The notes under the pieces are model-generated. The model worked only from the letters and a program-made list of their open reading frames with translations, was not told where the DNA came from and did not search any database. Positions 12,179-58,811 of a DNA stretch of 64,000 nucleotides are shown here, in pieces. How positions within the stretch are numbered: position 1 is the first letter of the stretch; the number at the start of each line of letters is the position of its first letter. The position numbers and the translations under genes are program-made. Source of the stretch: Bdellovibrionales bacterium (lineage in GTDB: Bacteria; Bdellovibrionota; UBA1018; CAIMNF01); contig JBEIJY010000004.1 of NCBI GenBank assembly GCA_040380025.1, positions 32,001-96,000 on the forward strand, given 5' to 3'.

Positions 12179-13081
12179 ATGAAAAATGCGGCTCCATTTT
12201 GGCGACGATTCGGCGGCTGGGGGATTCTCGGTATGGCCGTGGCCGCGATGATTTTGCTTCTTTTGCGAAATCCGCCGATCGAGGTCGATGGAGCCTCGGT
12301 CGAACGAAAGGAATTCATCGAGACCCTGATCAGTGACGGAATCCTGCGCTCGAAAACGCGCATCACCGTCACCGCCTTTGCCATGGGCGAACTCGGCCGC
12401 ATGCCCTACCGGGTCGGCGATGAGCTAAAAAAAGGCGCCGTGATCGCCGAGCTTTTGTGGGATGTGAAACCCGAGCCGGTCCGGGCTCCGATCGCGGGCG
12501 TGATCTCGAAGGTCTACCGCGAGAGCGCCGGGCCCATTCTTCGCGGAGAACCCATCGTGGAAATGGTCGATCCGCGCCACTTGGAGGGAATCGCAGAAGT
12601 GCTCACCATTCATGCGAGCCTTGTCCGGCCCGGGAATCCTGCCTTCATTACGATTCCCGGAATGCCGGAGCCCATTCGAGCAAGGGTGATCCGGATCAGC
12701 AAAGCGGGCTTTGTGAAGATCTCCGCCCTCGGGGTCGAAGAGGAGCGCACCGAGGTGACGCTCGCACTCGAGCACCCGGCGCGTGAGCTCGTGCAACACC
12801 TCGGGAGCACCTACCATGTCGAGGTCGCAATCGAAACGCGCCGCACGCCGAATGCCGTGCTTGTGCCAACGGGAGCATTGATTCGGGATGGATCGGACTG
12901 GGCGGTGTATCGGGTAAAGGAGGGACGGGCGAGGAAAGAGCGGGTCGAGATCGCGGGGACCTCGGGAGGCTCGGCAAAACTTGCCGGGGACGCACAAATT
13001 AAGCCGGGCGACCGGGTGATCGTCTACCCCGGGGATTTGGTCAAAGACGGGATTCGGGTGAAGGAGCGAGACTCGAGGTAG
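12179..13081 (+). CDS. Efflux periplasmic adaptor (HlyD/MFP family), apparently lacking the alpha-hairpin
   Basis: N-terminal anchor; VRAPIAGVI, SALGVEEER and VPTGAL motifs. Confidence 0.85.
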   Translation: MKNAAPFWRRFGGWGILGMAVAAMILLLLRNPPIEVDGASVERKEFIETLISDGILRSKTRITVTAFAMGELGRMPYRVGDELKKGAVIAELLWDVKPEPVRAPIAGVISKVYRESAGPILRGEPIVEMVDPRHLEGIAEVLTIHASLVRPGNPAFITIPGMPEPIRARVIRISKAGFVKISALGVEEERTEVTLALEHPARELVQHLGSTYHVEVAIETRRTPNAVLVPTGALIRDGSDWAVYRVKEGRARKERVEIAGTSGGSAKLAGDAQIKPGDRVIVYPGDLVKDGIRVKERDSR

Positions 13082-13191
13082 GATGGCGAAAGCGAGGCCG
13101 GAGGAACCGGCTCGGAGGTAAAAATAAAATCATCCCCCCCCCCTTTAGGCCCGCCCGTACGGCGCAAAAGCACAATCAAAGGGAGCAGTTT

Positions 13192-37870: not shown

Positions 37871-38634
37871 CGGCGACGGGTGCGTTCTCGAATCATCTGC
37901 GGACCCTGCTGCTTTCGGGCGATCTGCTGCAAAAGCTCTTCCGGCAGGTCTCGTCCGGTCCCCGCCGCGGGTCCGAGACCCGCGATGCGATTCGCTCGAT
38001 CGGACTCGGGAGCCTTCCGATCATCTCGATTGCGACGGGATTCACGGGGCTTGTGATGACCTCCGAGATCGCGTGGCACATGGATTCGGCGCTCTCGAAT
38101 GTCTCGATGATTCCGGGATTCACCGGGCAGTTCGTGCTCCGCGAGCTCGGGATCGCAGTGCCTGCGTTTTTGCTGGTATCGAAGGTGGGAGCATCGATGA
38201 CCGCCGAGCTCGCCTCGATGCGGATCACCGAACAGCTTGATGCGTTCCGGCTTCTGCGGATCGATGTGGTTTCGTACCATGTTTTTCCCCGCTGGATTGC
38301 GTGCATCCTTTCGACCATTGCGCTCACGATGATCTCGATTGCGATCACGCTTGCCGTGGCGATGGCGACCGCGGTGACCCGGTATCACTTCAACTCGCAG
38401 GAATACCTGAATACCCTCTCGCAGTTCATCACCGTGACCGATGTGGTCTGCGCGATCACCAAGGCCGCGGTGTTCGGGATGCTGATTCCGCCGATTTCGT
38501 GCGCCTATGGGCTGCGGTGCGAGGGCGGGGCGCAGGGGGTCGGACAGGCCACGACCGACGCCGTGGTCACAGCGACTCTTGCGGTGATTACGGTGGATTT
38601 TGTGCTCACGGCAATTTTTAGTGCGCTCTTTTGA
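37867..38634 (+). CDS. mlaE: MlaE-family permease 2
   Basis: RELG, AELASMRITEQLDAF and GAQGVGQAT motifs. Confidence 0.9.
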   Translation: MTATGAFSNHLRTLLLSGDLLQKLFRQVSSGPRRGSETRDAIRSIGLGSLPIISIATGFTGLVMTSEIAWHMDSALSNVSMIPGFTGQFVLRELGIAVPAFLLVSKVGASMTAELASMRITEQLDAFRLLRIDVVSYHVFPRWIACILSTIALTMISIAITLAVAMATAVTRYHFNSQEYLNTLSQFITVTDVVCAITKAAVFGMLIPPISCAYGLRCEGGAQGVGQATTDAVVTATLAVITVDFVLTAIFSALF

Positions 38635-38658
38635 AGAGTTCGGTAGCATCAGCCCTGA

Positions 38659-39486
38659 ATGAAGTTGACGAATGAGTCCAAAGTAGGCGCCCTCGTCGCC
38701 GTCACGGCCTTCATCGCCGTTGGCTTTGCGTGGCTTCTCGGGTTCGGGAATCCTTTTGGCGACCGGAATCATTTTTATATCACCTACAACTTCGCCGGAG
38801 GAATCGACCTCGGGTCGCACGTGCGGCTTTCGGGCATCAAGGTTGGAAAGGTCGAAGACATCGAGTTTTTCGCGCCCGCCGCCGGGCAAACCCCTTCGCG
38901 CAAGGAACCCGGTTCGGCCGATCGCGATCAGGGTCTGGCTCTCGCTCCCGTGCGGGTGAAGATCTCGGTCAAGAAGGCGGCGCTTCCCGGCATTCGCAAG
39001 AACTCGAATTTTTATATCAATCTTGCGGGCCTCATCGGCGAGCGCTACATCGAGATCACTCCCGGCACGGTCGATTCTCCGCCGCTTGCACCGGGCGAGA
39101 CCATCGCGGGAACCGATCCTCCGCGCATTGATCAGCTGATCTCGCAGAGCTTCAACCTTGCCGGAAAAATCCAGGAAGTGATCGAACGGAACAAGGGCGA
39201 TCTGACCCGCTCGATCGAGCTTCTGTACAAGCTGAGCGCCAACCTGAACCGTACGCTCGAGAAGGTGGACCAAAGCCAAGTGCTCTCGAAAGACCTGGGC
39301 CAGCTGATCTCAAACCTGATGGAATTGACCTCGGACATCCGCGAGATCACGAAGAACACCCGTTCGCCCGAAGGGCAAAAAACGATGAAGCTCCTGCATG
39401 ACCTTCTTTGGAGGCTCGAGCCGCTTGATTCCCAGCGGATCCGCGAGTTCCTGCAAAAAGAGGGCGTCAAGGTGAAGATCTTTTAA
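38659..39486 (+). CDS. mlaD: MlaD/MCE family protein with helical C-terminal extension
   Basis: ESKVG plus TM helix, GSHVRLSGIKVGKV and GLIGERYIEI motifs. Confidence 0.9.
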   Translation: MKLTNESKVGALVAVTAFIAVGFAWLLGFGNPFGDRNHFYITYNFAGGIDLGSHVRLSGIKVGKVEDIEFFAPAAGQTPSRKEPGSADRDQGLALAPVRVKISVKKAALPGIRKNSNFYINLAGLIGERYIEITPGTVDSPPLAPGETIAGTDPPRIDQLISQSFNLAGKIQEVIERNKGDLTRSIELLYKLSANLNRTLEKVDQSQVLSKDLGQLISNLMELTSDIREITKNTRSPEGQKTMKLLHDLLWRLEPLDSQRIREFLQKEGVKVKIF

Positions 39487-39495
39487 GGAGGCCCG

Positions 39496-40239
39496 ATGCA
39501 GTTCCGATCCGGATTCCTCGGAAAGCAGCTTCCGTTTTTTGCGGGAATCCTTCTTGTGATCCTTGCCATTCGATCCTCGATCATCGAGCCCTTCCGGATT
39601 CCGACGCGCTCGATGCTCCCCACCCTGATGACTGGGGATTTTTTATTTGCGAACAAGCTTCAATACGCGCTCCATGTGCCCTTCAGCGAGATTTTCTCGA
39701 AAACCCCGTGGTACCTCGGGTCTCTGCGCACTCCGGCCCGGGGGGATGTGGTGATCTTCGCCCCGCCCGATACCGCGCAGGAGTCCCTGCACATCAAGCG
39801 CGTGGTGGGACTGCCGGGGGACAAGATTCGCTTTGAGGGGAAAAAGCTCTTTTTGAACGGTGAACCCGTTGCCCGCGAAGAGCTGACCGGCGCCGAGCGC
39901 GATGCGGTTTTGAACCATCCTGGCTTTGACCCCGAGGAGCGATACAACCCCGCGAAGCTCCACCTGTACCGCGAGACCCTGGGGCAGAAGGCTCATTTGA
40001 TTCTCGAGGATGATTCGTTCGAGGGGTTCAAGAACGCCGCCGAGCTGGTGATTCCGGAGAATCAGTTTTTTGTGTTGGGCGACAACCGCGATGACACCCG
40101 CGACAGCCGCGCCTTCGGGCCGGTGTCGATTCATGCGATTCGCGGGCGCGCGTTTGTGATCTGGCTCTCGCACCGGATTTCGTTTTCGGATTCGAAGTGG
40201 TCCTTCCGGCCGGAACGAATCGGGACGATGGTCAAGTAG
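39496..40239 (+). CDS. lepB: Signal peptidase I
   Basis: IPTRSMLPTL, IKRVVGLPGD and GDNRDDTRDSR motifs. Confidence 0.93.
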   Translation: MQFRSGFLGKQLPFFAGILLVILAIRSSIIEPFRIPTRSMLPTLMTGDFLFANKLQYALHVPFSEIFSKTPWYLGSLRTPARGDVVIFAPPDTAQESLHIKRVVGLPGDKIRFEGKKLFLNGEPVAREELTGAERDAVLNHPGFDPEERYNPAKLHLYRETLGQKAHLILEDDSFEGFKNAAELVIPENQFFVLGDNRDDTRDSRAFGPVSIHAIRGRAFVIWLSHRISFSDSKWSFRPERIGTMVK

Positions 40240-40279
40240 CCGAACAGATCCCTTGGATGGTTTCTGATTTTGACTTTGG

Positions 40280-40356
40280 TGGATCAGAAACGATCAAAGT
40301 GAGCGGCTTGGAACGAATTCACCCCCCCTTCTCGATTCGAAGAAGGGAGGGCGAAG
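40280..40356. repeat. 77-bp element with terminator-like hairpin, copy 1 (3' of propeller gene 1)
   Basis: 74/77 identical to 42384-42460; the hairpin pairs best on the minus strand. Confidence 0.9.
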
Positions 40357-40380
40357 AAGAAATTCGGAAGTCAAACCTGG

Positions 40381-42111
40381 TTACGGAGTCTGAGGCGCAA
40401 AATCACCCGACCCGCCAAGAAGCCGGATCAGGAACAGGTCATAAGGGCCTACAACCCAATTATTATAGATCAACGGGTCGTTGCGTAGCTTCCCGTTCCC
40501 CTCTGAAATACTGCCCCAGGTGTATCCAGCGCAAACCACATCCCCCGACACAGGAACCAGTGCGACCGAGGTACAGAAGTCGCTGTTCTGGTTCTGATTC
40601 GCTGGATATTTCCACATCCCGACCGCGGCGTCCCAAACATTGGCGCCCGGGGTGAGAGGAGCGACAGTATTTTGCCCCAGACCGAGCTGTTTGGCCCAAG
40701 CAAATGTACCATTCGGGTTCAGCTTCACGACCATCGGGTCGTGCGCTCCGCCCGAGGCGGGCAGAGTTGAAAACACTCCACGCGTGAAACCAGCGCAATA
40801 CACGCCCCCTGTGGAATCCACAACGATTCCATTGAATCCATCATTGGATGCATTCGCATTCGCAAGGTTCGTTGCTTTGGTGACGGCACCGAACTGCCTG
40901 ACGTAATTCGTGACGCCGGCGTGCGTTAATCGAATCACGAACGCATCTCCTCCGAGACCTACATGGGCTTCAGACATGAATCCCTCGGTTTGACCGGCGC
41001 AATACACTCGATTTGAAGTATCCACGGCAACACTGGTACAAACATCGTCGCTCGCATAGGCACTCGCCGGGAGGCCCGCTGAAAGCCTGGTTCCTGCCCC
41101 GAACTGCCGGATCCAATTCACGGCGCCGGTAGAGGCCGACATCTTCATGATCACGGCATCATCGCCTCCGCCGTTCGTCTCACGCAAATCACCGTCGGTG
41201 CTCCCGGCGCAGTACACGATGCTTGCGCGAACTGTGATTCCGTTGCACTCCTCATTCCCCTGACCGGCCGACGGAAGAAGCCCATTTACAGTTGGCAACG
41301 TGGTCATACCCAGGTGTCTCACCCAATTGGCCTGAAGGTCGGACTTGTTCAAACGCATCACCAAAATATCCTTATAGGCACCATTGCCATAGAGACTCGC
41401 ATTGCGTTCATAGAAGTTTGAAGCGGTGTACCCTCCGACGTAAATATTATTACCAATCACCGCAATCGAATTGCACTGATCGCGTGAGTTGCGACTCGCA
41501 GCCGGGTCAGCTCCCGCAGGAACTGCCGTGTTGGCCCCGAACTGGACTGCCCGCTCGATCATTCCGGTGTCTTTTCGAATCTTCAAAACAAAAATGTCTT
41601 GGTCGCCCGCATTCTGGTCGGCAATCACTCCACGGGTGTACCCGCCGCAATAAACATGGGTCGCATCGACTGCCACACTTGTGCAATGGTCCTCGCCTTG
41701 ATTGGCGACGGCACTGAGGGCAGGACTCAAGCCAGGAACTTTCGTGTTCGCCCCCAACTGCGTCAGCCAAAGAATACTGCCATTCGGAGCGATTTTCATC
41801 ACGAAGGCATCCGCTTTCGAAAAGTTACCTCCCGCGCCGTCCGCGTTTACCCAGGTGGGATCCCCGTTATTTTCTCCCAAAATTCCGTTTGTGCTTCCCG
41901 CGCAGTAGGTGTTCTGATCGGCATCGACTGCAACCGCTCTACAAATTTCTTCGTTTCGATTTGCGAATAATGGCGCTCCCGGCGCCGCCGTTTGGCGCCC
42001 CAACTGCACCGCCCCCCAGGACTGCGCCCGGCTCTCGCTTGCGCCGATCAAGGCACTGGCGACTCCGGCCCAAGCCAACAGTTTTAACGACCGCGTACGT
42101 TCTCGCTTCAT
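40381..42111 (-). CDS. Secreted SBBP-type 7-bladed beta-propeller protein, paralogue 1
   Basis: Signal peptide and seven D.C..VAVD...YCAG.T...D.FV.K...W..Q.G repeats. Confidence 0.85.
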   Translation of the reverse strand: MKRERTRSLKLLAWAGVASALIGASESRAQSWGAVQLGRQTAAPGAPLFANRNEEICRAVAVDADQNTYCAGSTNGILGENNGDPTWVNADGAGGNFSKADAFVMKIAPNGSILWLTQLGANTKVPGLSPALSAVANQGEDHCTSVAVDATHVYCGGYTRGVIADQNAGDQDIFVLKIRKDTGMIERAVQFGANTAVPAGADPAASRNSRDQCNSIAVIGNNIYVGGYTASNFYERNASLYGNGAYKDILVMRLNKSDLQANWVRHLGMTTLPTVNGLLPSAGQGNEECNGITVRASIVYCAGSTDGDLRETNGGGDDAVIMKMSASTGAVNWIRQFGAGTRLSAGLPASAYASDDVCTSVAVDTSNRVYCAGQTEGFMSEAHVGLGGDAFVIRLTHAGVTNYVRQFGAVTKATNLANANASNDGFNGIVVDSTGGVYCAGFTRGVFSTLPASGGAHDPMVVKLNPNGTFAWAKQLGLGQNTVAPLTPGANVWDAAVGMWKYPANQNQNSDFCTSVALVPVSGDVVCAGYTWGSISEGNGKLRNDPLIYNNWVVGPYDLFLIRLLGGSGDFAPQTP

Positions 42112-42126
42112 AAGGGTTCTCCGTTC

Positions 42127-42165
42127 CACTTGATCATCTCAATCTTGATTAATTTAATCAAGTAT
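42127..42165 (-). promoter_or_regulatory. Shared promoter/operator of propeller gene 1
   Basis: TTGATT-17-GATGAT on the minus strand; perfect palindrome CTTGATTAA-T-TTAATCAAG at 42144-42162. Confidence 0.7.
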
Positions 42166-42383
42166 TAGAATGAAAAAAATCGCGAGCTGGCGTGTCCGGG
42201 GTGACATAAAAAGCTCTCCCACACCTTGCGCATGCCTTGAGTGTGCGGATGGGCAAACGGGTTTGGGTGAGAAAAAGGGTTTTACCTCCGAGCCGCGTCC
42301 TGCGGCCTCGCTTTCGCCAGCCTGGCTCGCGAGAGTCGGCAACCCTCTTTTTTATCCGGGAACTCCCTTCCACCAAAGTCTGA

Positions 42384-42460
42384 TGGATCAGAAACGATCA
42401 AAGTGAGCGGCTTGGAACGAATTCGCCCCCCCTTCTCGACTCAAAGAAGGGAGGGCGAAG
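42384..42460. repeat. 77-bp element with terminator-like hairpin, copy 2 (3' of propeller gene 2)
   Basis: 74/77 identical to 40280-40356. Confidence 0.9.
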
Positions 42461-42490
42461 GAATTTTCGTGAATCACCGCGGTCTTGCGA

Positions 42491-44194
42491 TCACTGCGCG
42501 AACGAGCCGTCTGCGCCACGGAGACGGATCAGGAGGGCATCGTCACCGTTACCATTCACCCACATAGGGTTATTGGTCAAACCGTTGATCTCGGTGATCG
42601 TATTATCGGTTTTCCCCGCGCAAACGATATCGCCTCCAGGGGCAACAGCGACCCCGAAGCACCGATCATCATTTCCGGAATTCGGAAAATAATAAGTGGG
42701 ATCTCCACCCGGTGTCGGGGGAGCAACCGTGGTTCTTCCGAGTTGTTTTCCCCAGCCCGGATTTCCCTGAGAATCGAGTTTTGCGACGATGACATCATAA
42801 CTTGTAGAGTTACCTAGCACGCCCTGCCCATATCCGTTCTCCTCCGAAAACACAAAGCCGGTATATCCCGAACAATACACATTGTTTTGAGCATCCACTG
42901 CGACACTCGTGAATCCGTCTTCACGCGAATTTGCCAAGGCGGGAGCATTCGCCGCTCTCGATAGGGCACCGTACTGCCGGACCCAAATTCCCGACAAGTT
43001 CACCCCCGACAACTTCATTACGAAGGCGTCCGAAAGGAAAGAAGGGTAAGTTGGACTCACCCCCGTTCCGTTGGGTTCGGAGAACATTCCCGTTGTGAAT
43101 CCGGCACAGTACACATCACCATTCTGATCAATCGCCACACTGGTGCAAGCGTCCCGACCTCTGTTTGCAAGCGCATTTTGAACCCACTTGGTCGTGGCTC
43201 CATACTGCTTGATCGCTTGTCGAGCGCCGTTCGTGGTGCGAAGTTTCAACACGAACGCATCGTCGAATATCGGGGCCTCGGCCAAGTGACCATTAGTGCC
43301 CCCCACGCAGAAAACGCTCGATCCAACCGCAACTCCATTGCATTCTTCATCTCCTTTGTTCGCACTGACCTGAGGAACATTCGGAGCTCTCGTGAGGTTC
43401 CCGAAATGGGTTACCCAGCTCAAGTTTCCGGTCGATTTCGCTAGCCTCATCACCAATAAGTCCCTGGTGCCGGCCGGACCCACATTCAACTCCTTGAAGC
43501 TTCCGGAGGTGGAACCACCACAAAACACCGAACCGTTCACCAACGAATCGACCGCGATTGACTTGCAAACATCGTCCCCTGCGCGGGATGCTTGAGCGTT
43601 CGCTCCCGGTATGCTCGTAGTGGCACCGAATTGCTTGACCCACTGAATCGCGCCATCACTCGCACTCAACTTCATTACGAACGCATCCTTCCCACCGGCG
43701 TTCGGTTCGGCAATCACCCCCGTGGTGGAACCACCGCAGTAAACAAATCCATTTGCAACCGCAACAGACAAACACGCATCATCCCCAAGATTGGCTTGGG
43801 CAAGGAGCGCAGGGGCTAAGTTCGGAGCCTTGGTGGTTTGACCAAGCTGGATCACCCACTCAATTGTGCCACTCGGAGCGATCTTCATGACAAATGCGTC
43901 ACCCGGTCCCCAGCCGTACCCGTAATAGGGGGCAACTGCAGGAACCGCATTTTGTTCTCCGAGAATTCCTGTGGTGCTTCCGGCACAGTAGGTGTTTCCG
44001 CTCGCATCGACCGCCACCCCATTGCACCGATCAAATCCGATATTCGCATATGGAGAGACTCCTGGCGCCGATGTGAGAGTCCCCAACTGCACCGCCCCCC
44101 AGGACTGCGCCCGAACCTCGCTTGCGCCCATCAGGGCGCTGGCCACACCGGCCCATGCCCAAAATTTTACCGACCGCGTACGTGCTCGCTTCAT
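42491..44194 (-). CDS. Secreted SBBP-type 7-bladed beta-propeller protein, paralogue 2
   Basis: N-terminus very similar to paralogue 1 (MKR.RTRS.K..AWAGVASAL.GASE.RAQSWGAVQLG); seven Cys-containing repeats. Confidence 0.85.
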   Translation of the reverse strand: MKRARTRSVKFWAWAGVASALMGASEVRAQSWGAVQLGTLTSAPGVSPYANIGFDRCNGVAVDASGNTYCAGSTTGILGEQNAVPAVAPYYGYGWGPGDAFVMKIAPSGTIEWVIQLGQTTKAPNLAPALLAQANLGDDACLSVAVANGFVYCGGSTTGVIAEPNAGGKDAFVMKLSASDGAIQWVKQFGATTSIPGANAQASRAGDDVCKSIAVDSLVNGSVFCGGSTSGSFKELNVGPAGTRDLLVMRLAKSTGNLSWVTHFGNLTRAPNVPQVSANKGDEECNGVAVGSSVFCVGGTNGHLAEAPIFDDAFVLKLRTTNGARQAIKQYGATTKWVQNALANRGRDACTSVAIDQNGDVYCAGFTTGMFSEPNGTGVSPTYPSFLSDAFVMKLSGVNLSGIWVRQYGALSRAANAPALANSREDGFTSVAVDAQNNVYCSGYTGFVFSEENGYGQGVLGNSTSYDVIVAKLDSQGNPGWGKQLGRTTVAPPTPGGDPTYYFPNSGNDDRCFGVAVAPGGDIVCAGKTDNTITEINGLTNNPMWVNGNGDDALLIRLRGADGSFAQ

Positions 44195-44210
44195 TGAAGT
44201 TCTCCCATCT

Positions 44211-44249
44211 CACTTGATCATCTCAATCCTGATTTATTTAATCAAGTAA
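44211..44249 (-). promoter_or_regulatory. Shared promoter/operator of propeller gene 2
   Basis: CACTTGATCATCTCAATCCTGATTTATTTAATCAAGTA is nearly identical to 42127-42164. Confidence 0.7.
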
Positions 44250-44299
44250 TAAGATCAAAAACCGTCGCAAGTGTGTCCGGGATGACTCGAATCAGGATT

Positions 44300-45664
44300 T
44301 TACTGTGCGACCGCCTGCTTGATGACCTCAGAATCGGTCACCCGCATGAACTCGAGCTCCACACGGCGGTTTCGGGCGTGGGCGCTTTCGCTCTCGCCCC
44401 GATCGATCGGCTTGGTTTCGCCGTAGCCGATCGCTTTTACCTTTTGGGCAGAAACTCCTCCCTCGATCAGGAGCCTGCGCACTGTCTCGGCCCGACGAAG
44501 CGAAAGATCCATGTTGAACTTGTCTGATCCGCGGGTGTCGGTGTGGCCCGAAACGATCAGCGACTTCCAGGCGCGGTTGTGCTTCGAAAGATACCGACCG
44601 ATGTTTCGAACCCTGCGCTGATGCGGAATCGGCAAATGCGTGTCATTGAAGTCGAACGGCAGATCGTTGAAGCCCATCGAGAGAATCAGCTTCTTCGCCG
44701 GCTTCGGAGCGGCTCGGACCACCGGAGTGGGCTCAGGAGTCGGCTCAGGCGTGGGCTCCGGGGTCGGTTCTGGTGTCGGTTCTGGAGTTGGTTCAGGAGT
44801 CGGCTCAGGTGTGGGCTCCGGGGTCGGTTCGGGAGTTGGTTCGGGGGTTGGCTCAGGTGTGGGCTCCGGGGTCGGCTCGGGAGTCGGCTCGGGCGTGGGC
44901 TGGGGCTTTGCTCCGGCGCGATCGAGATCATACGAGTCGATCTGTTCGTAGTTTTTTTGCTTCGCGGTTGGAGTGTCGTCGTCGCTGAACGCATCAAACC
45001 CGATCTGAAAAAACACCTGAAACTGATTGAATCCCCGCTCGGATGCGCTGATGTTGCTGAGCCAGCGGGCGCCGAGGCGGTATTTTCTCATGCGGTCCCA
45101 TTCGTAGACCGCCTGGACACCCAAAAGTTTCGCATTGTTCGTTTGCTGGAGCGAGGTGGGATCGAGATTCAACCCGTTGTCGGTTCCGAACCAGTAATTG
45201 AACTCCGGTCCGATCTGAAACTTGCGGCTCATCCGCCAGCGGGCCGAAACATCGGCAAATGCAACCTTGGTCCTGGTCGAGATCGTGTCGGTCCCCCGCT
45301 TGCCGCTCGCAGAGAGGTACTGCCAACCCATTCCCCCGTCGAACACGAAATCCTCAAAAATCCCCGAAATCAACCCACGCACTCCACCCGAAAACCCGCT
45401 CCGCGTCTCTTCGTCCGTACGAACGGGCGAGTAGCTTGCCGCTCCGAGATCGAACCCCAAGAACAACCACCAGTGCTTTTGACTCAAATCGGGGTACACG
45501 ACCGGAGCTTCTTCGGCAGGGGCATCCGGCATGATCACGGTCTCGGGGATCAGCTCGGCATTGGCGGCGGGCCTCGACTTGGGTCGCGAAGAACGCCTGG
45601 GTGCGGCTTCGGTCGGGAGAGCGAGAATCAAAGCCAGAACGGCGAGCAGGATCCGTGCGTGCAT
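44300..45664 (-). CDS. OmpA-family protein (beta-barrel, (PEPT)n linker, OmpA_C domain)
   Basis: Signal peptide, barrel strands, and [18 protein letters not shown] and NRRVE motifs. Confidence 0.9.
44723..44902 (-). repeat. 12-bp coding tandem repeat (14 EPTP units)
   Basis: Repeated GG[C/T]TCnGGnGTn units with synonymous variation; higher-order block 44731-44770 resembles 44791-44830. Confidence 0.95.
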
Positions 45665-45710
45665 GACTGAAATTGTAAGGGACAAACCGCGTGCTTGAAA
45701 AGCGCAATCC

Positions 45711-47327
45711 CTAGCGCCGAAGCTCGTCCCGAAGAGCCGACTCCAAAAGCGGCACCCAAGGGGCGCCGTGGTCTTTTCTGGAAAGGTGGAGTGGTTGCCG
45801 GCGCCGGACAAAGTCCTCGACCGTGAGAACCATCTGGTGGCGGACCGCATACCGGAACTGCGCCTCAAGAAACGGAAACCCCTCGGGGTCGGTCGTGTCG
45901 GGCTTGCAGTGGCTTTGATGGATCTCGTAAATCACCAGCGCATCGGATCCGTAGCGTTCCCAGAGCGCATCGGGAATCTTCCAGCCGCGGGCCCGCGCAA
46001 GCTCACGCGCCGACTGCACTTCGCCCGGCATGGCGGGCTCAAAGAGCGGCACGTTCGTGTTCGGTTTTCTTGTCTCGTGTTTTCGGGATCGCGGATCGCG
46101 TGTCGCAAAATTGACGATTTCTTCGGCCATTTTGCGAAATGTCGTGTACTTGCCGCCGGCGACGATCACCGATTCCCCCGGGCCGTCCGCGATCGTGTGC
46201 TCGCGCGAAACGTTCTGAAGCGCTCCACCACCCGCCTCTGCGTCTTTCGCAGGGTTCACAAGGGGGCGGATCCCGATGTAGTGGCTCACCACATCGTTCT
46301 CGTTCAGCCCGAGATCAGGAAAATACTTCGAGAGGAGCTCAAGAAGATACGCCTGGTCGGCGACGATCGCAGCCGACTCGTCTTCGATTCGATCGGGCGG
46401 AAGCGAGCATGGGCCATCGGTCGTACCCACGATCGTGACTCCCGCGCCGAAATCGCGCCTCGGAATCACAAAGGCGATCCGGCCGTCCTCGATTTGCATC
46501 GTGACCGCACCCGGCACCGGAAACCGCTTCCAGTCGAACACCAAATGGAGTCCGCGGCTCGGCGCAAGCCAGTTCCGCCACGCCTGCCCATCGAGGGATT
46601 TTCCGACCTCGTCCGTCCAGGCGCCGGCGCAAACGATGAGTTTGCGAAACCGCGTGCGAATGGTTTTACCCGAGAGCGCATCCTGCAGGGTCATGCCGGT
46701 GATGCGGCCCCCGGAATCACGAGAGGGCTCGACCGCTTTTACTCTTGAGGCAATGCAGGCGCCGTTTTGATGGGCTTTCAAGAGCACATCCAAAACAAGG
46801 GCGTCATCCCACATCGAGGCGTCGAAATATTTGAACGTACAGCGCAGACCCTTCTTTTGAATGCCGGGAATCGAACGCGCCGAGACTCCGGCCGAGAGAC
46901 GCTGATGAAGCCCGGGCGCGCGGAAGAGCGAAAGCAGATCGTAGAACCACATTCCGGCACTCAGAAGGAGCGGCGAATGGGGACTGTTGTCGTACACGGG
47001 CATGTAAAACGAGAGCGGACGAACCAGATGAGGCGCGGACTGCAACAAATACGACCTCTCGCTCAGGGCCTCAAATACAAGTGGAAACTCATAGTGCTCA
47101 AGATACCGAAGCCCGCCGTGCACGAGCTTCGAGGAGCGCGAGGAGGTTCCGTGGGCGAAGTCGTCTTTTTCGACAAGGGCCACTTTATAGCCGCGCGAGG
47201 AGGCATCCCAGGCCACGCCTGCTCCGGTGATTCCGCCTCCGATGACCAAGAAATCGAACTCCTCTTCCGCGAGTCGATCAAGATTTTCGGACCGCGTGGT
47301 GAACGAGAACTCGGGGGTGGCGGTCAT
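45711..47327 (-). CDS. glpD: FAD-dependent glycerol-3-phosphate dehydrogenase/oxidase
   Basis: [27 protein letters not shown] and [12 protein letters not shown] motifs. Confidence 0.93.
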
Positions 47328-53301: not shown

Positions 53302-54711
53302 ATGGAGACATTTGATTTGATCGTGATCGGCGGCGGCCCCGCCGGATATGTGGCCGCAATCCGGGCCTCCCAGCTCGGCATGAAAACCGTGTGCGTCGAG
53401 AAGCGCGCCTCGCTCGGCGGAACCTGCCTGAACGTGGGGTGCATTCCCTCGAAGGCCCTGCTCGATTCGAGCGAGCACTTCTCGCTTGCGCGCTACAAGT
53501 TCAAGAAGCACGGAATCGAGATGAGCGACCTCAAGATGAACGTGCCGCAGATGATCGCGCGCAAAAATGAAGTGGTGAAGCAACTCACCCAGGGCATTGC
53601 GGGATTGTTCAAAAAGAACAAAATCGAGTGGGCCCAAGGCTACGGCCGGTTTGCCGGACTTGAAGGAACCAAAAAGATCGTCGAAGTGGACGGCCCCGTG
53701 AAGCGCACGTTTGCGGCCGAGAAGGTGCTGATCGCAACCGGAAGCGAGGCAATTGAACTTCCGAACCTGAAGTTCGACGGCAAGACCGTGATCTCGTCGA
53801 CCGAGGCGCTTGAGCTCCAGTCAGTGCCAGGCCACCTTGCCGTGGTCGGCGGAGGCGTGATCGGGCTTGAGATGGGCTCGGTATGGAGCCGCTTGGGCGC
53901 GAAGGTGACGGTGATCGAGTTTGCCGACAAGATCTTGAGCGTGATGGACCAGCAGATTGCGGCCGAGGCGAAAAAATCGCTCACGAAGCAGGGCCTGGAG
54001 TTCCGCATGAATACCCAGGCGCTGGGCGCGAGCGATTCGGGCAATAAAAAAGTTCTTGAGGTCATGGACCGCGCCACCGGCGCCAAAGACACGATCGAGT
54101 GCGATGTGATTCTGGTTGCGACCGGACGCCGCCCGTTCACCGACGGGCTGAATCTTGAGAGCATTCACCTTAAGGCAAACGAAAAAGGCCGCGTGGACAT
54201 CGATGAACACTTCGAGACCGCGGTAAAAGGCGTTTACGCGGTCGGCGACTGCGTGCAGGGCCCGATGCTCGCCCACAAGGCCGAAGAAGAGGGCATGGCG
54301 GCGGTCGAGATCATGGCCGGACAAGCAGGCCATGTGAACTACCATACGATTCCCTGGATTGTGTACACCTGGCCTGAGATCGCAGGCGTCGGCCACACCG
54401 AAGAGGAACTGAAGGCCAAGGGCATCGAGTACAAGGTCGGGTCGTTTCCGTTTTTGGCGAACGGCCGAGCAAAGGCGATGGATGAGTCCGAGGGACTCGT
54501 GAAGCTGTTGGCCGATGCGAAGACGGACCGGCTTTTGGGGATGCACATTTTCGGCCCCCGGGCCTCGGACCTGATCGCCGAGGGCTCGACGGTTCTGGAA
54601 TACGGCGGCTCGGCCGAAGACGTGGCCCGGACCTGCCATGCCCACCCGACCCTCTCGGAGGCGGTCAAAGAAGCCGCCCTTGCGGTCGACGGGCGGCGGA
54701 TTCATTTGTAA
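53302..54711 (+). CDS. lpdA: Dihydrolipoamide dehydrogenase E3
   Basis: GGTCLNVGCIPSK and HAHPTLSE motifs. Confidence 0.97.
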   Translation: METFDLIVIGGGPAGYVAAIRASQLGMKTVCVEKRASLGGTCLNVGCIPSKALLDSSEHFSLARYKFKKHGIEMSDLKMNVPQMIARKNEVVKQLTQGIAGLFKKNKIEWAQGYGRFAGLEGTKKIVEVDGPVKRTFAAEKVLIATGSEAIELPNLKFDGKTVISSTEALELQSVPGHLAVVGGGVIGLEMGSVWSRLGAKVTVIEFADKILSVMDQQIAAEAKKSLTKQGLEFRMNTQALGASDSGNKKVLEVMDRATGAKDTIECDVILVATGRRPFTDGLNLESIHLKANEKGRVDIDEHFETAVKGVYAVGDCVQGPMLAHKAEEEGMAAVEIMAGQAGHVNYHTIPWIVYTWPEIAGVGHTEEELKAKGIEYKVGSFPFLANGRAKAMDESEGLVKLLADAKTDRLLGMHIFGPRASDLIAEGSTVLEYGGSAEDVARTCHAHPTLSEAVKEAALAVDGRRIHL

Positions 54712-54775
54712 TCAGATCAATATGGTAGCAGACCGTTGTTGCCGGCGAGCTGGACCACATCCTACGATTGGGTCC

Positions 54776-56614
54776 TCATGGTTTCGCCGGACGCAGGGGT
54801 AGCGGAGGAAGCGGACCTGGCGGAACTCTCGTTGTGGTGGGTCGAACCGGGGGAACAAGTTCACCCGTCTGACCGTCCACGCGAACAAGAACAGGGTCTT
54901 TTCCGTCGACATTCGATGCATTCGGAAGATAGTAGCGATTCGACCCGTTTTGCTCCGAGATGAAGCGAGTGGTGTAGCCTGCGCAGACCACATCGCCGGC
55001 TTTCGAAACCGCAACACCCAAGCACCTATTATCTCCAGAGTTTTGAGTATACAAGAAGTTGGGGTCAGTGCCTTGGGTCACCAATGCCTTGCTCGTGGCT
55101 CCCAACTGTCTGCCCCAAAGGGGAACGCCGTTCCGGTCGAGTTTGACTATGGTCATATTTTGGCTAAAGGTGTTGGCAGGCAACCCGGGGGAAGGAGCTT
55201 CGGCAAAAACGCCGGTGGTGAATCCTGAAGCGTATACGTTGTCATTCGAATCCACAGTAACGCCAAAGAAAAAATTGCTGAGTTGGTTTGCTCCGGCAGG
55301 GGCCCCTGGGACTCGTGTATTCGCCCCGAATTGTCGCGACCATAATATGTTCCCCCCGGGGTTGAGTTTCATGACAAATGCATCAGAATAGCCGCCTGTG
55401 GGTTCTGCTAGGGTGCCCTCTGTGCTTCCGACGCAATACACATTGCCTCTACGATCGACGGCAACTCCACTGCAAACTCCATTGAATAAATTCGGGTCCA
55501 AGTTCGCCGGAGCACCTGGAACGTAGGTGACAGCACCGAGTTGAACAAGCCAAGTCTCGGTCGATGGGGGCGGTAAAAACTGACCCGTATCAGCACTGAG
55601 CCTCAGTACGAATGCGTCCGCCATGTTATTCGTATTCCCATTTCCCTCGCTCAAGTAACCTCTGGTGTAGCCTGCGCAATGCACAAACCGGCGGGAAGGA
55701 CCAACGGTGCCGACTGCGACCGATTCACAGCGATCCTCACTGCGATTCGCAAGCAACGGGTCTGCGCCCGGGGCACGCGTCTCGGTGCCGAGCTGGGTGA
55801 CCCAATCCACTTGGCCATTCGCCCGAAGGCGCATCAAAAAGACGTCACGGAATCCAGCATTGGGTTCCTTCAAAAAGCCGCTCGTATATCCTGCAGCATA
55901 AACTCGCCCCTCTCCATCAACGCTCACACCATTGACTACATCTTCCCCCTGCTTTGCCGTGTTGGCACCCGTTAGGCTGGGGTTGATTCCTGGAATTTGA
56001 GTCGAGGCGCCCAGTTGTCTTGCCCAAACGATCGCTCCATCGCTTTGTCTCAGCTTCAAGACGAATGCATCGGGACCTCCTGCAGACGCTTCTGCAAGAG
56101 CGCTAAGTGTTAATCCTCCGCAGTAAACACCTCCTTCTCGATCGACGGCAACGCTATTGCAGACGTCAAATTCTTGATTCGCACTTGCGTAGAGAGGGTC
56201 CCATTGGGGTATGGCTTTGGTGTTGCGACCCAATTGGGTGATCCATAAAATTTCGCCCTTGGGGCTGACCTTCATCACAAAGGCATCGCCGTAAAGCCCG
56301 CATACGAGACCTCCTGGAGGGCCGTTTGGCGCAGCGGGATGCGCATTTTCCTCGCCCAGGTTTCCGTAGGTTACCCCGCCACAATAGGAGTTTCCCTCCT
56401 CATCCACGGCCACGCCCCTGCATTCATCATACTTTTCGTTCGCTTTGATTGGAGCGTTCGGCCCGAGCGTCAGGGCTCCGAGCTGGACTGCGCTCCAAGT
56501 CATGGGTTGCGGAGTTTGGGCGAATGTTTTGGCTCCCAAGAAGACGCTTGCGATCCCCGCCCACACCGCGAGCATTCCCGGCCCAGTCCGAATTGGTTTC
56601 GTGAGGTCATCCAT
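54776..56614 (-). CDS. Secreted SBBP-type 7-bladed beta-propeller protein, paralogue 3 (Pro-rich tail)
   Basis: WAGIAS signal peptide, WSAVQLG, seven repeats of the same Cys-containing unit. Confidence 0.85.
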   Translation of the reverse strand: MDDLTKPIRTGPGMLAVWAGIASVFLGAKTFAQTPQPMTWSAVQLGALTLGPNAPIKANEKYDECRGVAVDEEGNSYCGGVTYGNLGEENAHPAAPNGPPGGLVCGLYGDAFVMKVSPKGEILWITQLGRNTKAIPQWDPLYASANQEFDVCNSVAVDREGGVYCGGLTLSALAEASAGGPDAFVLKLRQSDGAIVWARQLGASTQIPGINPSLTGANTAKQGEDVVNGVSVDGEGRVYAAGYTSGFLKEPNAGFRDVFLMRLRANGQVDWVTQLGTETRAPGADPLLANRSEDRCESVAVGTVGPSRRFVHCAGYTRGYLSEGNGNTNNMADAFVLRLSADTGQFLPPPSTETWLVQLGAVTYVPGAPANLDPNLFNGVCSGVAVDRRGNVYCVGSTEGTLAEPTGGYSDAFVMKLNPGGNILWSRQFGANTRVPGAPAGANQLSNFFFGVTVDSNDNVYASGFTTGVFAEAPSPGLPANTFSQNMTIVKLDRNGVPLWGRQLGATSKALVTQGTDPNFLYTQNSGDNRCLGVAVSKAGDVVCAGYTTRFISEQNGSNRYYLPNASNVDGKDPVLVRVDGQTGELVPPVRPTTTRVPPGPLPPLPLRPAKP

Positions 56615-56620
56615 GATCAA

Positions 56621-56649
56621 ATGATCTCAATACATACTAATTTAGTCAA
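56621..56649 (-). promoter_or_regulatory. Shared promoter/operator of propeller gene 3
   Basis: TTGACT-17-GATCAT on the minus strand with palindrome ACTAA-T-TTAGT. The predicted start site coincides with the ATG at 56614, implying a leaderless mRNA. Confidence 0.65.
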
Positions 56650-56838
56650 CAATTAGGGTGGGGTGTTCATTAAACCAAGATGAATCCCGCTAACATATTG
56701 ATCTGATTACAAATGAATCAAAATTGAGATCCTGACGGCATGAGCACTCCTCTTACGCTCGCCGATGCGTGCTCGAGAAATCTCACGACCTTCGCGGCCT
56801 TGGTCATTGCCTTCTGAGTAGCGGCGCCCTGGCTCTGG

Positions 56839-57869: not shown

Positions 57870-58811
57870 ATGCAGATTCTTCGTGTTCCGACGCATGAAC
57901 TTTCGGTTTTTCGAACGTTTGACGGGTACCCGATTCCGGAGTTCCTCGAGGTCCAAACCGCCTCGGCAACTCCCGCCTTGCTCGAGGAACTCCCCAACCT
58001 CGGGCTCGGCATCGTCGGTACCCGTCATCCCCAACAGCGCTCCCTGGAGCTTCTCGAAGCCTCGCTTCGAGGGCTCCGGGGCTCGCCCCTCGTGATTCTT
58101 TCGGGCTTTGCACGCGGAATCGACTCGGCCGCCCACTGGGGCGCGATTCAAAACGGACTGCGCACGATCGCGATTCTGGGATGCGGGATCGACATCGATT
58201 ACCCTCGCGAAAACCGCTTTCTTCGCGAGTCGATTCTTCGTGCGGGTGGAATGCTCCTCTCGCCCTTCGCCCGGGGAACGCCGCCGATGCCGCGGAATTT
58301 TCATGAGCGGAACGGCCTGATCGCGGGATTCTCGAAGGCGCTTTGGGTGGTCGAGGCGGCGGCGGTCTCGGGAACCCTGAATACCGCCTCGTGGGCGATG
58401 CGATTCAACCGGAACCTCTATGCGACCTCGTGCTTTCCGGCCGATCCGTTTTTTGAAGGGAACGAGAAGCTTTTGAGCCAGCGCAGGCCCGACGCGTACC
58501 CCGTGGCCGAGGGGTTCTTCGGGATTCATTCGCTCGAATCGACTTGGAGCGATCTCGGCAGCGCAGGAGGAATTCAAGAATCGCTTTCATTGGCGCACGA
58601 ACCGCTGACGCAGTTCCAGTCATGGGCGCTCGAGATCAAGCACGAGTTCGGCGAATGCCGGGTGCAGGCCCTTTGGGGTCGGGCGCTGGAGCAGGGGGTA
58701 GGAGCCGGGAGCTTTTATCTGGCGCTAGAGCGCGAGATCGAAGCGGGGCTCTTGCGGCGCGACCAGGACGGCCGGATCGAGGTGGTGCGGCGGCGGACGG
58801 ATGGCCGGTGA
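57870..58811 (+). CDS. dprA: DNA-processing protein DprA/Smf
   Basis: GIVGTR, SGFARGID.AAH, F.ERN.LIAG and VVEAA..SGTL.TA motifs. Confidence 0.9.
   Translation: MQILRVPTHELSVFRTFDGYPIPEFLEVQTASATPALLEELPNLGLGIVGTRHPQQRSLELLEASLRGLRGSPLVILSGFARGIDSAAHWGAIQNGLRTIAILGCGIDIDYPRENRFLRESILRAGGMLLSPFARGTPPMPRNFHERNGLIAGFSKALWVVEAAAVSGTLNTASWAMRFNRNLYATSCFPADPFFEGNEKLLSQRRPDAYPVAEGFFGIHSLESTWSDLGSAGGIQESLSLAHEPLTQFQSWALEIKHEFGECRVQALWGRALEQGVGAGSFYLALEREIEAGLLRRDQDGRIEVVRRRTDGR

Follow-up and report, generated by a model that had tools for sequence, protein, structure and literature searches.

How can two neighbouring genes keep nearly identical ends while their middles drift far apart? This question is raised by two adjacent genes, here called A and B, in an uncultured Bdellovibrionales bacterium. 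They lie in a stretch of 64,000 nucleotides (nt), referred to as the window, which covers positions 32001-96000 of contig C4 (JBEIJY010000004.1) of assembly GCA_040380025.1, a metagenome-assembled genome (MAG) of 2.35 Mb in 53 contigs with a completeness of 98%. Both genes are long open reading frames (ORFs), arranged head to tail on the minus strand, and both encode propeller proteins of the SBBP type. An initial annotation, made from the letters of the window alone, read the pair as secreted propeller genes with a constant frame for expression and export around a variable binding surface, maintained by gene conversion or recombination through the constant ends. The observation itself was confirmed: A and B have divergent middles and near-identical ends. 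We favour, with somewhat better than even confidence, an old tandem duplication in which selection and gene conversion make the ends evolve in concert.

Gene A (40381-42111) encodes 576 amino acids from an ATG at 42111, with a predicted Sec signal peptide followed by the propeller, and gene B (42491-44194) encodes 567. Both products matched the Pfam family SBBP (PF06739), A with an E-value of 3e-18 and 65.9 bits and B with 6.8e-19 and 68 bits, where the curated whole-protein cut-off is 20.5 bits. An AlphaFold2 model of B, built from a 12-sequence alignment, reached a predicted local distance difference test score (pLDDT) of 82.7 and a predicted TM-score (pTM) of 0.87 and contained 28 blade strands in seven groups of four. 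The fold was modelled for B only. The blocks common to A and B are direct repeats. A repeat finder placed four of them in register, with 2081-2104 nt between the starts of the repeated pieces in the two units. Together with the two Pfam matches and the seven blades of the B model, this spacing upholds the original description of two tandem propeller units of about 2.1 kb.

At their 3' ends the units share a 77-nt element on the minus strand (copy A, 40280-40356; copy B, 42384-42460). A blastn search against the whole genome found 74 of the 77 positions (96.1%) to be identical, exactly as first counted. Copy A follows the stop codon of A at about 24 nt, and its distance to the stop of the convergent gene lepB is 40 nt; copy B was recovered as a blastn match to copy A and followed up by alignment, folding and a consensus stem. 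In each copy, a G+C-rich stem of 16 bp with a 6-nt loop leads into a 40-nt tail that does not differ between A and B; the folding z-score of the element was -3.3. In the alignment, the conserved block spans the base of the hairpin to ...TCTGATCCA, with abrupt borders on both sides. All three substitutions fall in the hairpin and keep its structure, two being in the loop and one changing a G-U pair to G-C. The hairpin may be a terminator or a transcript stabiliser, and its tail presumably has a role as well. An Rfam search of 39900-44700, with E-values up to 1, gave no match. The 3' tail of A also pairs with an imperfect inverted copy of itself (40240-40311; arms of 29 nt that are 76% complementary and stand 14 nt apart). 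This partner is missing from unit B, where a dispersed repeat takes its place. An inverted GATCAA(A)GTG motif, present in the 5' untranslated region (UTR) and the 3' tail of each unit, was dropped as a candidate because its 9-10-nt match is within chance.

At the 5' end, conservation is confined to islands: a GTCAYCCCGGACAC box, a T-run, the promoter, a GGAGAAC ribosome-binding site and the beginning of the coding sequence. The outer edge of the homology is formed by an upstream block on the minus strand, GTCACCCCGGACAC in A (42192-42205) and GTCATCCCGGACAC in B (44273-44286, 13 nt past the stop of an ompA-like gene), which matches at 13 of 14 positions. The GTCAYCCCGGACAC 14-mer has four further sites in the genome with at most one mismatch and is weak as a sole marker, yet it stands in register with the other blocks. 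The promoter stretch (42127-42164 in A, 44211-44248 in B) is 38 nt long and was identical at 36 positions (94.7%; blastn). Its core in A (42136-42161, minus strand), TTGATT-AAA-N11-TGAGAT, can be read as a -35 hexamer plus an extended -10-like motif and overlaps a 9-1-9 palindrome, CTTGATTAAATTAATCAAG. The core in B (44220-44245, minus strand) matches the same pattern, and the two cores agree at 24 of 26 positions. Codons 1-38 (41998-42111 in A and 44081-44194 in B, minus strand) encode the signal peptide and an SWGAVQLG segment. They were compared by blastn, synonymous-site counts and alignment, and share 100 of 114 bases (87.7%; blastn) and 32 of 38 residues; past a 33-nt perfect run in codons 28-38, the match stops abruptly. 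The promoter and the first codons are thus as close to identical as the initial annotation had them, but the 5' region as a whole is a patchwork and not an even block.

This conservation extends to synonymous sites. With the Nei-Gojobori method, the proportion of synonymous differences (pS) was 0.24 in codons 1-38 (7 of 28.7 sites) versus a saturated 0.76 in the rest (279.5 of 367.5), and the nonsynonymous proportion (pN) was 0.08 versus 0.38. Third positions were identical in 31 of 38 early codons and in 178 of 506 others (Fisher p 2.6e-8). When only identical residues were considered, the third base was the same in 28 of 32 early codons versus 106 of 246 later ones (p 2e-6). High-identity blocks that include synonymous sites therefore adjoin saturated sequence, the arrangement by which segmental conversion is recognized. 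The low pS points to gene conversion or to nucleotide-level constraint, beyond protein-level selection alone, and since the ends are conserved beyond what protein-level selection would give, recombination or gene conversion through them is plausible. This part of the earlier proposal stands on the coding block; the share assigned to the promoter does not, as it is largely explained by a promoter class described below. With 3 differences in 77 sites, the 3' element is significantly closer to identity than expected from the rate at 5' synonymous sites (binomial p 1.2e-6), so the ends have at least two "ages", as repeated short conversions would give.

Between the ends, divergence is extensive. 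In a global alignment the core DNA of A and B was about 50% identical, with 60-nt windows ranging from about 28 to 68%, versus 75-90% in windows at the unit ends. The proteins were 46% identical (276 of 594 columns, 50 of them gap columns). Core strands were 62% identical (125 of 202 residues) versus 40% for non-strand residues (121 of 304), and 53 of the 55 gap columns in the core lay outside strands. Loops are indeed more divergent than strands, but this is the usual propeller pattern and no evidence for diversifying selection. Because synonymous divergence is saturated in the core, the ratio of nonsynonymous to synonymous rates (dN/dS) is not estimable.

Judging from their N-termini, where a signal peptide is seen by inspection, A and B look exported, and their function is presumably extracytoplasmic binding. 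In the model of B, residues 1-28 were disordered, as expected for a signal peptide, and residues 34-36, in the conserved N-terminal segment, formed the closing strand of blade 7. The best solved structural match of B in Foldseek was the CylK propeller (7fh6; E 1.3e-27, TMq 0.64, 22% identity). The repeat signature and the seven-blade fold are common to A and B, the SBBP family and CylK; no catalytic role can be carried over from CylK, and the match confirms the fold but gives nothing firm on function. Most of the SBBP homologues found had a lipoprotein-like N-terminus in the alignment, in contrast to the plain signal peptide of A and B. A literature search found no paper on SBBP proteins in Bdellovibrio.

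The conserved ends belong to this pair only. In blastn searches of the assembly, the 3' element, the promoter plus leader and the 5' coding block occurred only at A and B, in exactly two copies. Using tblastn, four SBBP loci were found in the genome, all full-length, and no partial or silent copies. Besides A and B these are paralogue C, in the window (54776-56620, minus strand; 39-43% identical to A and B; Pfam E 2.3e-28, 98.3 bits), and paralogue D on contig C7. Neither the 3' element nor the N-terminus shared by A and B was present in the genes or flanks of C and D. The 3' element was not found in any of the 18 other genomes of the family. An exact 30-nt piece of it had no match in metagenome contigs, in a search restricted to exact matches from which records of its own genome may be excluded, and residues 1-42 of B drew 10 candidates from a set of 5.8 billion proteins, none of which scored. 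The notion of a gene family in which cores are swapped within a constant frame was therefore not borne out: the ends exist in two copies, C and D lack them, and relatives lack the 3' element. As for the further copies expected in the genome and its relatives, only the operator core recurs, as a promoter class. SBBP homologues are common in Bdellovibrionota, with several on one contig. A motif filter of 100 loci yielded four other tandem pairs, all of metagenomic origin (L025, L047, L061 and L073; L062 is the same sequence as L061), and in all four the coding DNA was more conserved than the 220-nt flanks. The end conservation is absent from these pairs and is therefore peculiar to the A/B locus.

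The surroundings of the tandem bear on its origin. It occupies 4.06 kb (40240-44299) between lepB and the ompA-like gene. In six of six congeners, MlaE-MlaD-LepB converge on OmpA-GlpD-AspS with about 10-55 nt between the stops and no SBBP gene between them, which makes the tandem a lineage-specific insertion. LepB identity to the nearest congeners is about 70%. When contigs of other genomes were searched with B, no orthologous tandem was found; the closest named relative by SBBP proteins was the Bdellovibrionales MAG SZAS-1, at 45% identity. The outer edges of homology lie 40 nt (lepB side) and 13 nt (ompA side) from the neighbouring stops. The two units are separated by a unique spacer of 178 nt (42206-42383), which is largely one copy of a dispersed palindromic repeat (42265-42350); A and B probably adjoined each other originally. 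For a quick maximum-likelihood tree, 57 rows were used, comprising the four proteins of this genome without their N-termini and the 53 hits among P0001-P0069 with a length of 450-700 amino acids; hits outside this length range, the best hit P0001 among them, were left out. The four paralogues formed one clade (support 99) in which A and B were sisters, as were C and D (99); this is in keeping with an origin by duplication within the lineage. Terminal branches were near 1 substitution per site.

Under the explanation that we favour, a complete unit reaching from promoter to 3' hairpin would have been inserted between lepB and the ompA-like gene in the lineage of the species. This unit would then have been duplicated whole to give A and B, the cores of which diverged to saturation. 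Selection would act on the cis elements that the copies share, namely the promoter class and its ribosome-binding leader, the signal peptide together with the strand that closes the blade, and the 3' stem-loop. Short-tract gene conversion of the RecA type could start only where identity survives, which would be in the same islands, and would thereby reinforce selection. Conversion in the islands would also explain why synonymous sites are preserved and why the 40-nt tail is identical.

Several findings weigh against this explanation. Gene conversion itself is something that we infer from a single genome of the species. The 5' UTR from the promoter to the ribosome-binding site, as well as the 4 nt before the ATG, is almost fully diverged, and such a patchy 5' region is better explained by selected islands, or by a number of small conversion tracts, than by a single one. 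A and B were sisters in the tree, but with only moderate support (84 in the Shimodaira-Hasegawa-like approximate likelihood ratio test, SH-aLRT), and the tree was a quick one. RNAalifold found 0 compensatory base pairs in the 5' and 3' blocks, a comparison of two sequences that has no power. The 3' hairpin has no U-tract, and a terminator scan did not call it. Finally, unitig depth in the probable source run was 25 over the A core (40291-42027) and 26.8 over the B core (42395-44110) versus 35.1 and 32.5 in the flanks. A minority of the population may therefore differ at this locus, either without these cores or with others.

The promoter of A and B belongs to a wider class. The 26-nt pattern TTGAYYAAA-N11-TGAGAT has five sites in the genome, at A, at B, at paralogue C (56624-56649), at 9750-9775 of contig C1 and at 7104-7129 of contig C30. 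It was also found once each in 3 of 16 congeners, and a reversed control pattern gave 0 matches; by our arithmetic, about 0.02 matches per genome are expected by chance. The core of A agreed with those of the three other units of the same genome at 20-21 of 26 positions, and the cores of A and B agreed with those of C and the two non-homologous units (contigs C1 and C30) at 20-23 of 26. The ribosome-binding site stands at a fixed distance. On contigs C1 and C30 and in two congeners (G004 and G010), the class precedes an ORF of 27-28 codons that ends in (A/V)GPPR-stop; codons 4-9 of B have GCACGTACGCnGTC in common with the copy on contig C30. Scans for sigma-70 and terminator consensus sequences found nothing at the shared ends of A and B, and their totals were not above those of shuffled sequences. 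In the other loci examined, the pattern was not upstream of the SBBP homologues, the one match, in L047, being on the opposite strand.

The small ORF has the form M..(N/Q).AR.LS.DAKDEK...H.(A/V)GPPR-stop at its four loci (contig C1, L103/L116; contig C30, L104/L123; G004, L117; G010, L119). It is followed by about 100 nt of conserved sequence that includes GACGTCG and CTCATGAACCG. This transcription unit had no Rfam match above threshold. Its C-terminal GPPR-stop is reminiscent of ribosome-stalling leader peptides. In a further congener (G005; L118, contig C41, ORF from 1547) the same promoter class stands before a lipoprotein-like protein that combines a PT-rich linker with RCC1-type propeller repeats, which hints that the class serves exported propeller proteins more widely. 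TTGAYYAAA-N11-TGAGAT is a specific promoter class of this uncultured Bdellovibrionales lineage, linking secreted propeller genes to a conserved small ORF, and is of practical value for annotation and expression engineering in these bacteria.

Another possible explanation for the ends is selection without any recombination between the copies. The ends would then be cis elements under purifying selection at the nucleotide level: a promoter/operator, an mRNA leader that reaches into the first codons, and a 3' stem-loop with a tail bound by protein or RNA. Since the promoter class precedes non-homologous genes both here and in congeners, the conservation of the 38-bp stretch is functional and needs no recombination, and it is largely explained by the shared class. 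Also in favour of selection are the sequence that codons 4-9 of B have in common with the small ORF on contig C30, the conserved islands with diverged stretches between them, and the structure-keeping substitutions in the hairpin. However, codons 10-38 keep their synonymous sites, including the 33-nt perfect run, although no element is known to need it. In addition, the 40-nt tail has no detectable counterpart elsewhere in the genome or in relatives and no Rfam match, and C shares the promoter class but neither the coding block nor the 3' block. Selection by itself is thus an unlikely explanation, though one to be taken seriously.

The units could also have arrived separately, as cassettes with constant ends that had already diverged in a donor pool and landed side by side. 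We consider this improbable. The tandem is an insertion relative to all six congeners, its homology edges lie within 13-40 nt of its borders, and the third-position G+C content (GC3) of the four SBBP genes is 0.55-0.62, about 1 standard deviation below the genome mean, all of which speaks for this reading. No donor pool was found, however, given that neither the 30-nt piece of the 3' element nor the 42 N-terminal residues were matched in large collections. In the tree, A and B are sisters within a single clade of the four paralogues, and there is no integrase or transposase on contig C4. Paralogue C also looks like an insertion. A 31-nt inverted repeat (54699-54729 and 56689-56719; 30 of 31 positions complementary), unique in the genome, brackets C and its promoter. 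The left arm of this repeat includes the final 13 nt of lpdA, a sequence conserved across five of five congeners, which carry different genes downstream of lpdA. The repeat was therefore rejected as a transposon end and is read as target DNA duplicated in inverted orientation where a rearrangement took place.

Programmed or population-level exchange would make the constant ends homology arms, between which cores from other cells replace one another. The 5' arm would consist of the promoter, the signal peptide and the blade-closing strand, and the 3' arm of the hairpin and the 40-nt tail. If this were true, a Bdellovibrio-like bacterium would use the system to diversify a protein that recognizes prey or surfaces, and the lower core depth would reflect cells with other cores. 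Homology blocks do flank a divergent core here, the proteins have a signal peptide by inspection, and DprA, a RecA loader, is encoded in the window (57870-58811). In Borrelia hermsii, a short conserved 5' block and a downstream block (the upstream and downstream homology sequences, UHS and DHS) flank the highly divergent coding cores of vlp/vsp genes, which have one expression site and many promoterless archived copies. A and B resemble that system in their conserved 5' and downstream blocks around divergent cores but differ from it in being two complete genes, each with its own promoter, and in having no archive. Indeed, no silent, partial or promoterless donor is present among the four full loci, both copies of the ends have a promoter, and the pattern is missing from the four other tandem pairs.

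Known recombination machinery does not lend weight to exchange either. The scan of 52 window ORFs gave no match to integrase, resolvase or transposase families and only DprA was present, so that the earlier statement that the window holds no recombinase is correct. In the genome, there were four PF00589 matches, none of which is on contig C4, one Y1_Tnp-like ORF on contig C13 and no PF00239 match. The absence of a tyrosine recombinase from the window ORFs and the separate promoter of each unit speak against an integron, for which attC motifs were not formally scored. The direct orientation of the shared blocks, together with the lack of PF00239 in the genome and of PF00589 on contig C4, speaks against an invertible or shufflon-type system.

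Over 38000-47000, the comparison covered contigs and unitigs from the probable source run and from three further runs. No A/B joints or swapped or chimeric units, such as exchange would predict, were seen in the contigs of the four runs, which drop rare variants. The only joints fell within two repeats, the dispersed one and the PEPT repeat of the ompA-like gene. Three of the runs (X2-X4) held small shares of this organism, at 2-4x depth, and gave short fragments that were identical or 2-7% different and without informative joints. Exchange is highly improbable. With no further copies, and no mosaicism in these contigs, the condition that the initial annotation set for its own refutation points to an old duplication, though one with homogenised ends.

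Lastly, it is scarcely credible that A and B are alleles of one locus in two strains, misjoined across repeats. The source is a MAG, and its Logan unitigs break exactly at the shared ends and within the spacer repeat. Breaks at the shared perfect runs are to be expected at k=31, and these runs (33 and 40 nt) do not reach the length of typical reads. Junction unitigs exist (42001-42309 and 42290-42413), and the core depths are alike and each about 75-80% of flank depth, not about half, which rules out two alleles collapsed into a tandem.

For duplicated genes with ends kept in concert, the closest documented parallel is in Helicobacter pylori. According to PMC3960876, its babA/babB, homA/homB and sabA/sabB pairs undergo segmental concerted evolution through RecA-dependent intragenomic gene conversion. 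As described there, the bab and hom genes are like A and B in being paralogues for exported proteins in which a segment with high identity within the genome lies beside divergent ones. In H. pylori the homogenised segments are long and coding, the loci are dispersed, and both chimeras and expression switching are established. In A and B, by contrast, the blocks are short (77 nt at the 3' end and about 210 nt in patches at the 5' end) and mostly non-coding, the genes are in tandem, and no chimera was seen. The pattern at A and B is real yet fairly ordinary. It is a small, clean case in which tandem paralogues encoding exported proteins keep their expression and export ends in concert as their bodies diverge, and the conceptual gain is small unless strain data show swapping of cores.

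Two further repeats lie at or beside the locus. The neighbouring OmpA-family gene (44300-45868, minus strand) has a long (PEPT)n linker, with the repeat at about 44640-44950. In the comparison of runs, this repeat attracted contigs of other organisms (depth 105 in run X1 and 90.7 in run X4) and had a "goes back 180" joint, typical of a tandem repeat. The dispersed palindromic repeat in the spacer is about 63-86 nt long and had no Rfam match. It folds into a long stem with a two-hairpin tip, giving a Y shape, and a second, partial copy lies in the window at 13074-13123. In the genome it gave 86 blastn high-scoring segment pairs (E ≤ 1e-5), 36 of them within 300 nt of contig ends. Its depth was 643 versus about 30 elsewhere, and contigs from other metagenomes carry the repeat with unlike flanks.

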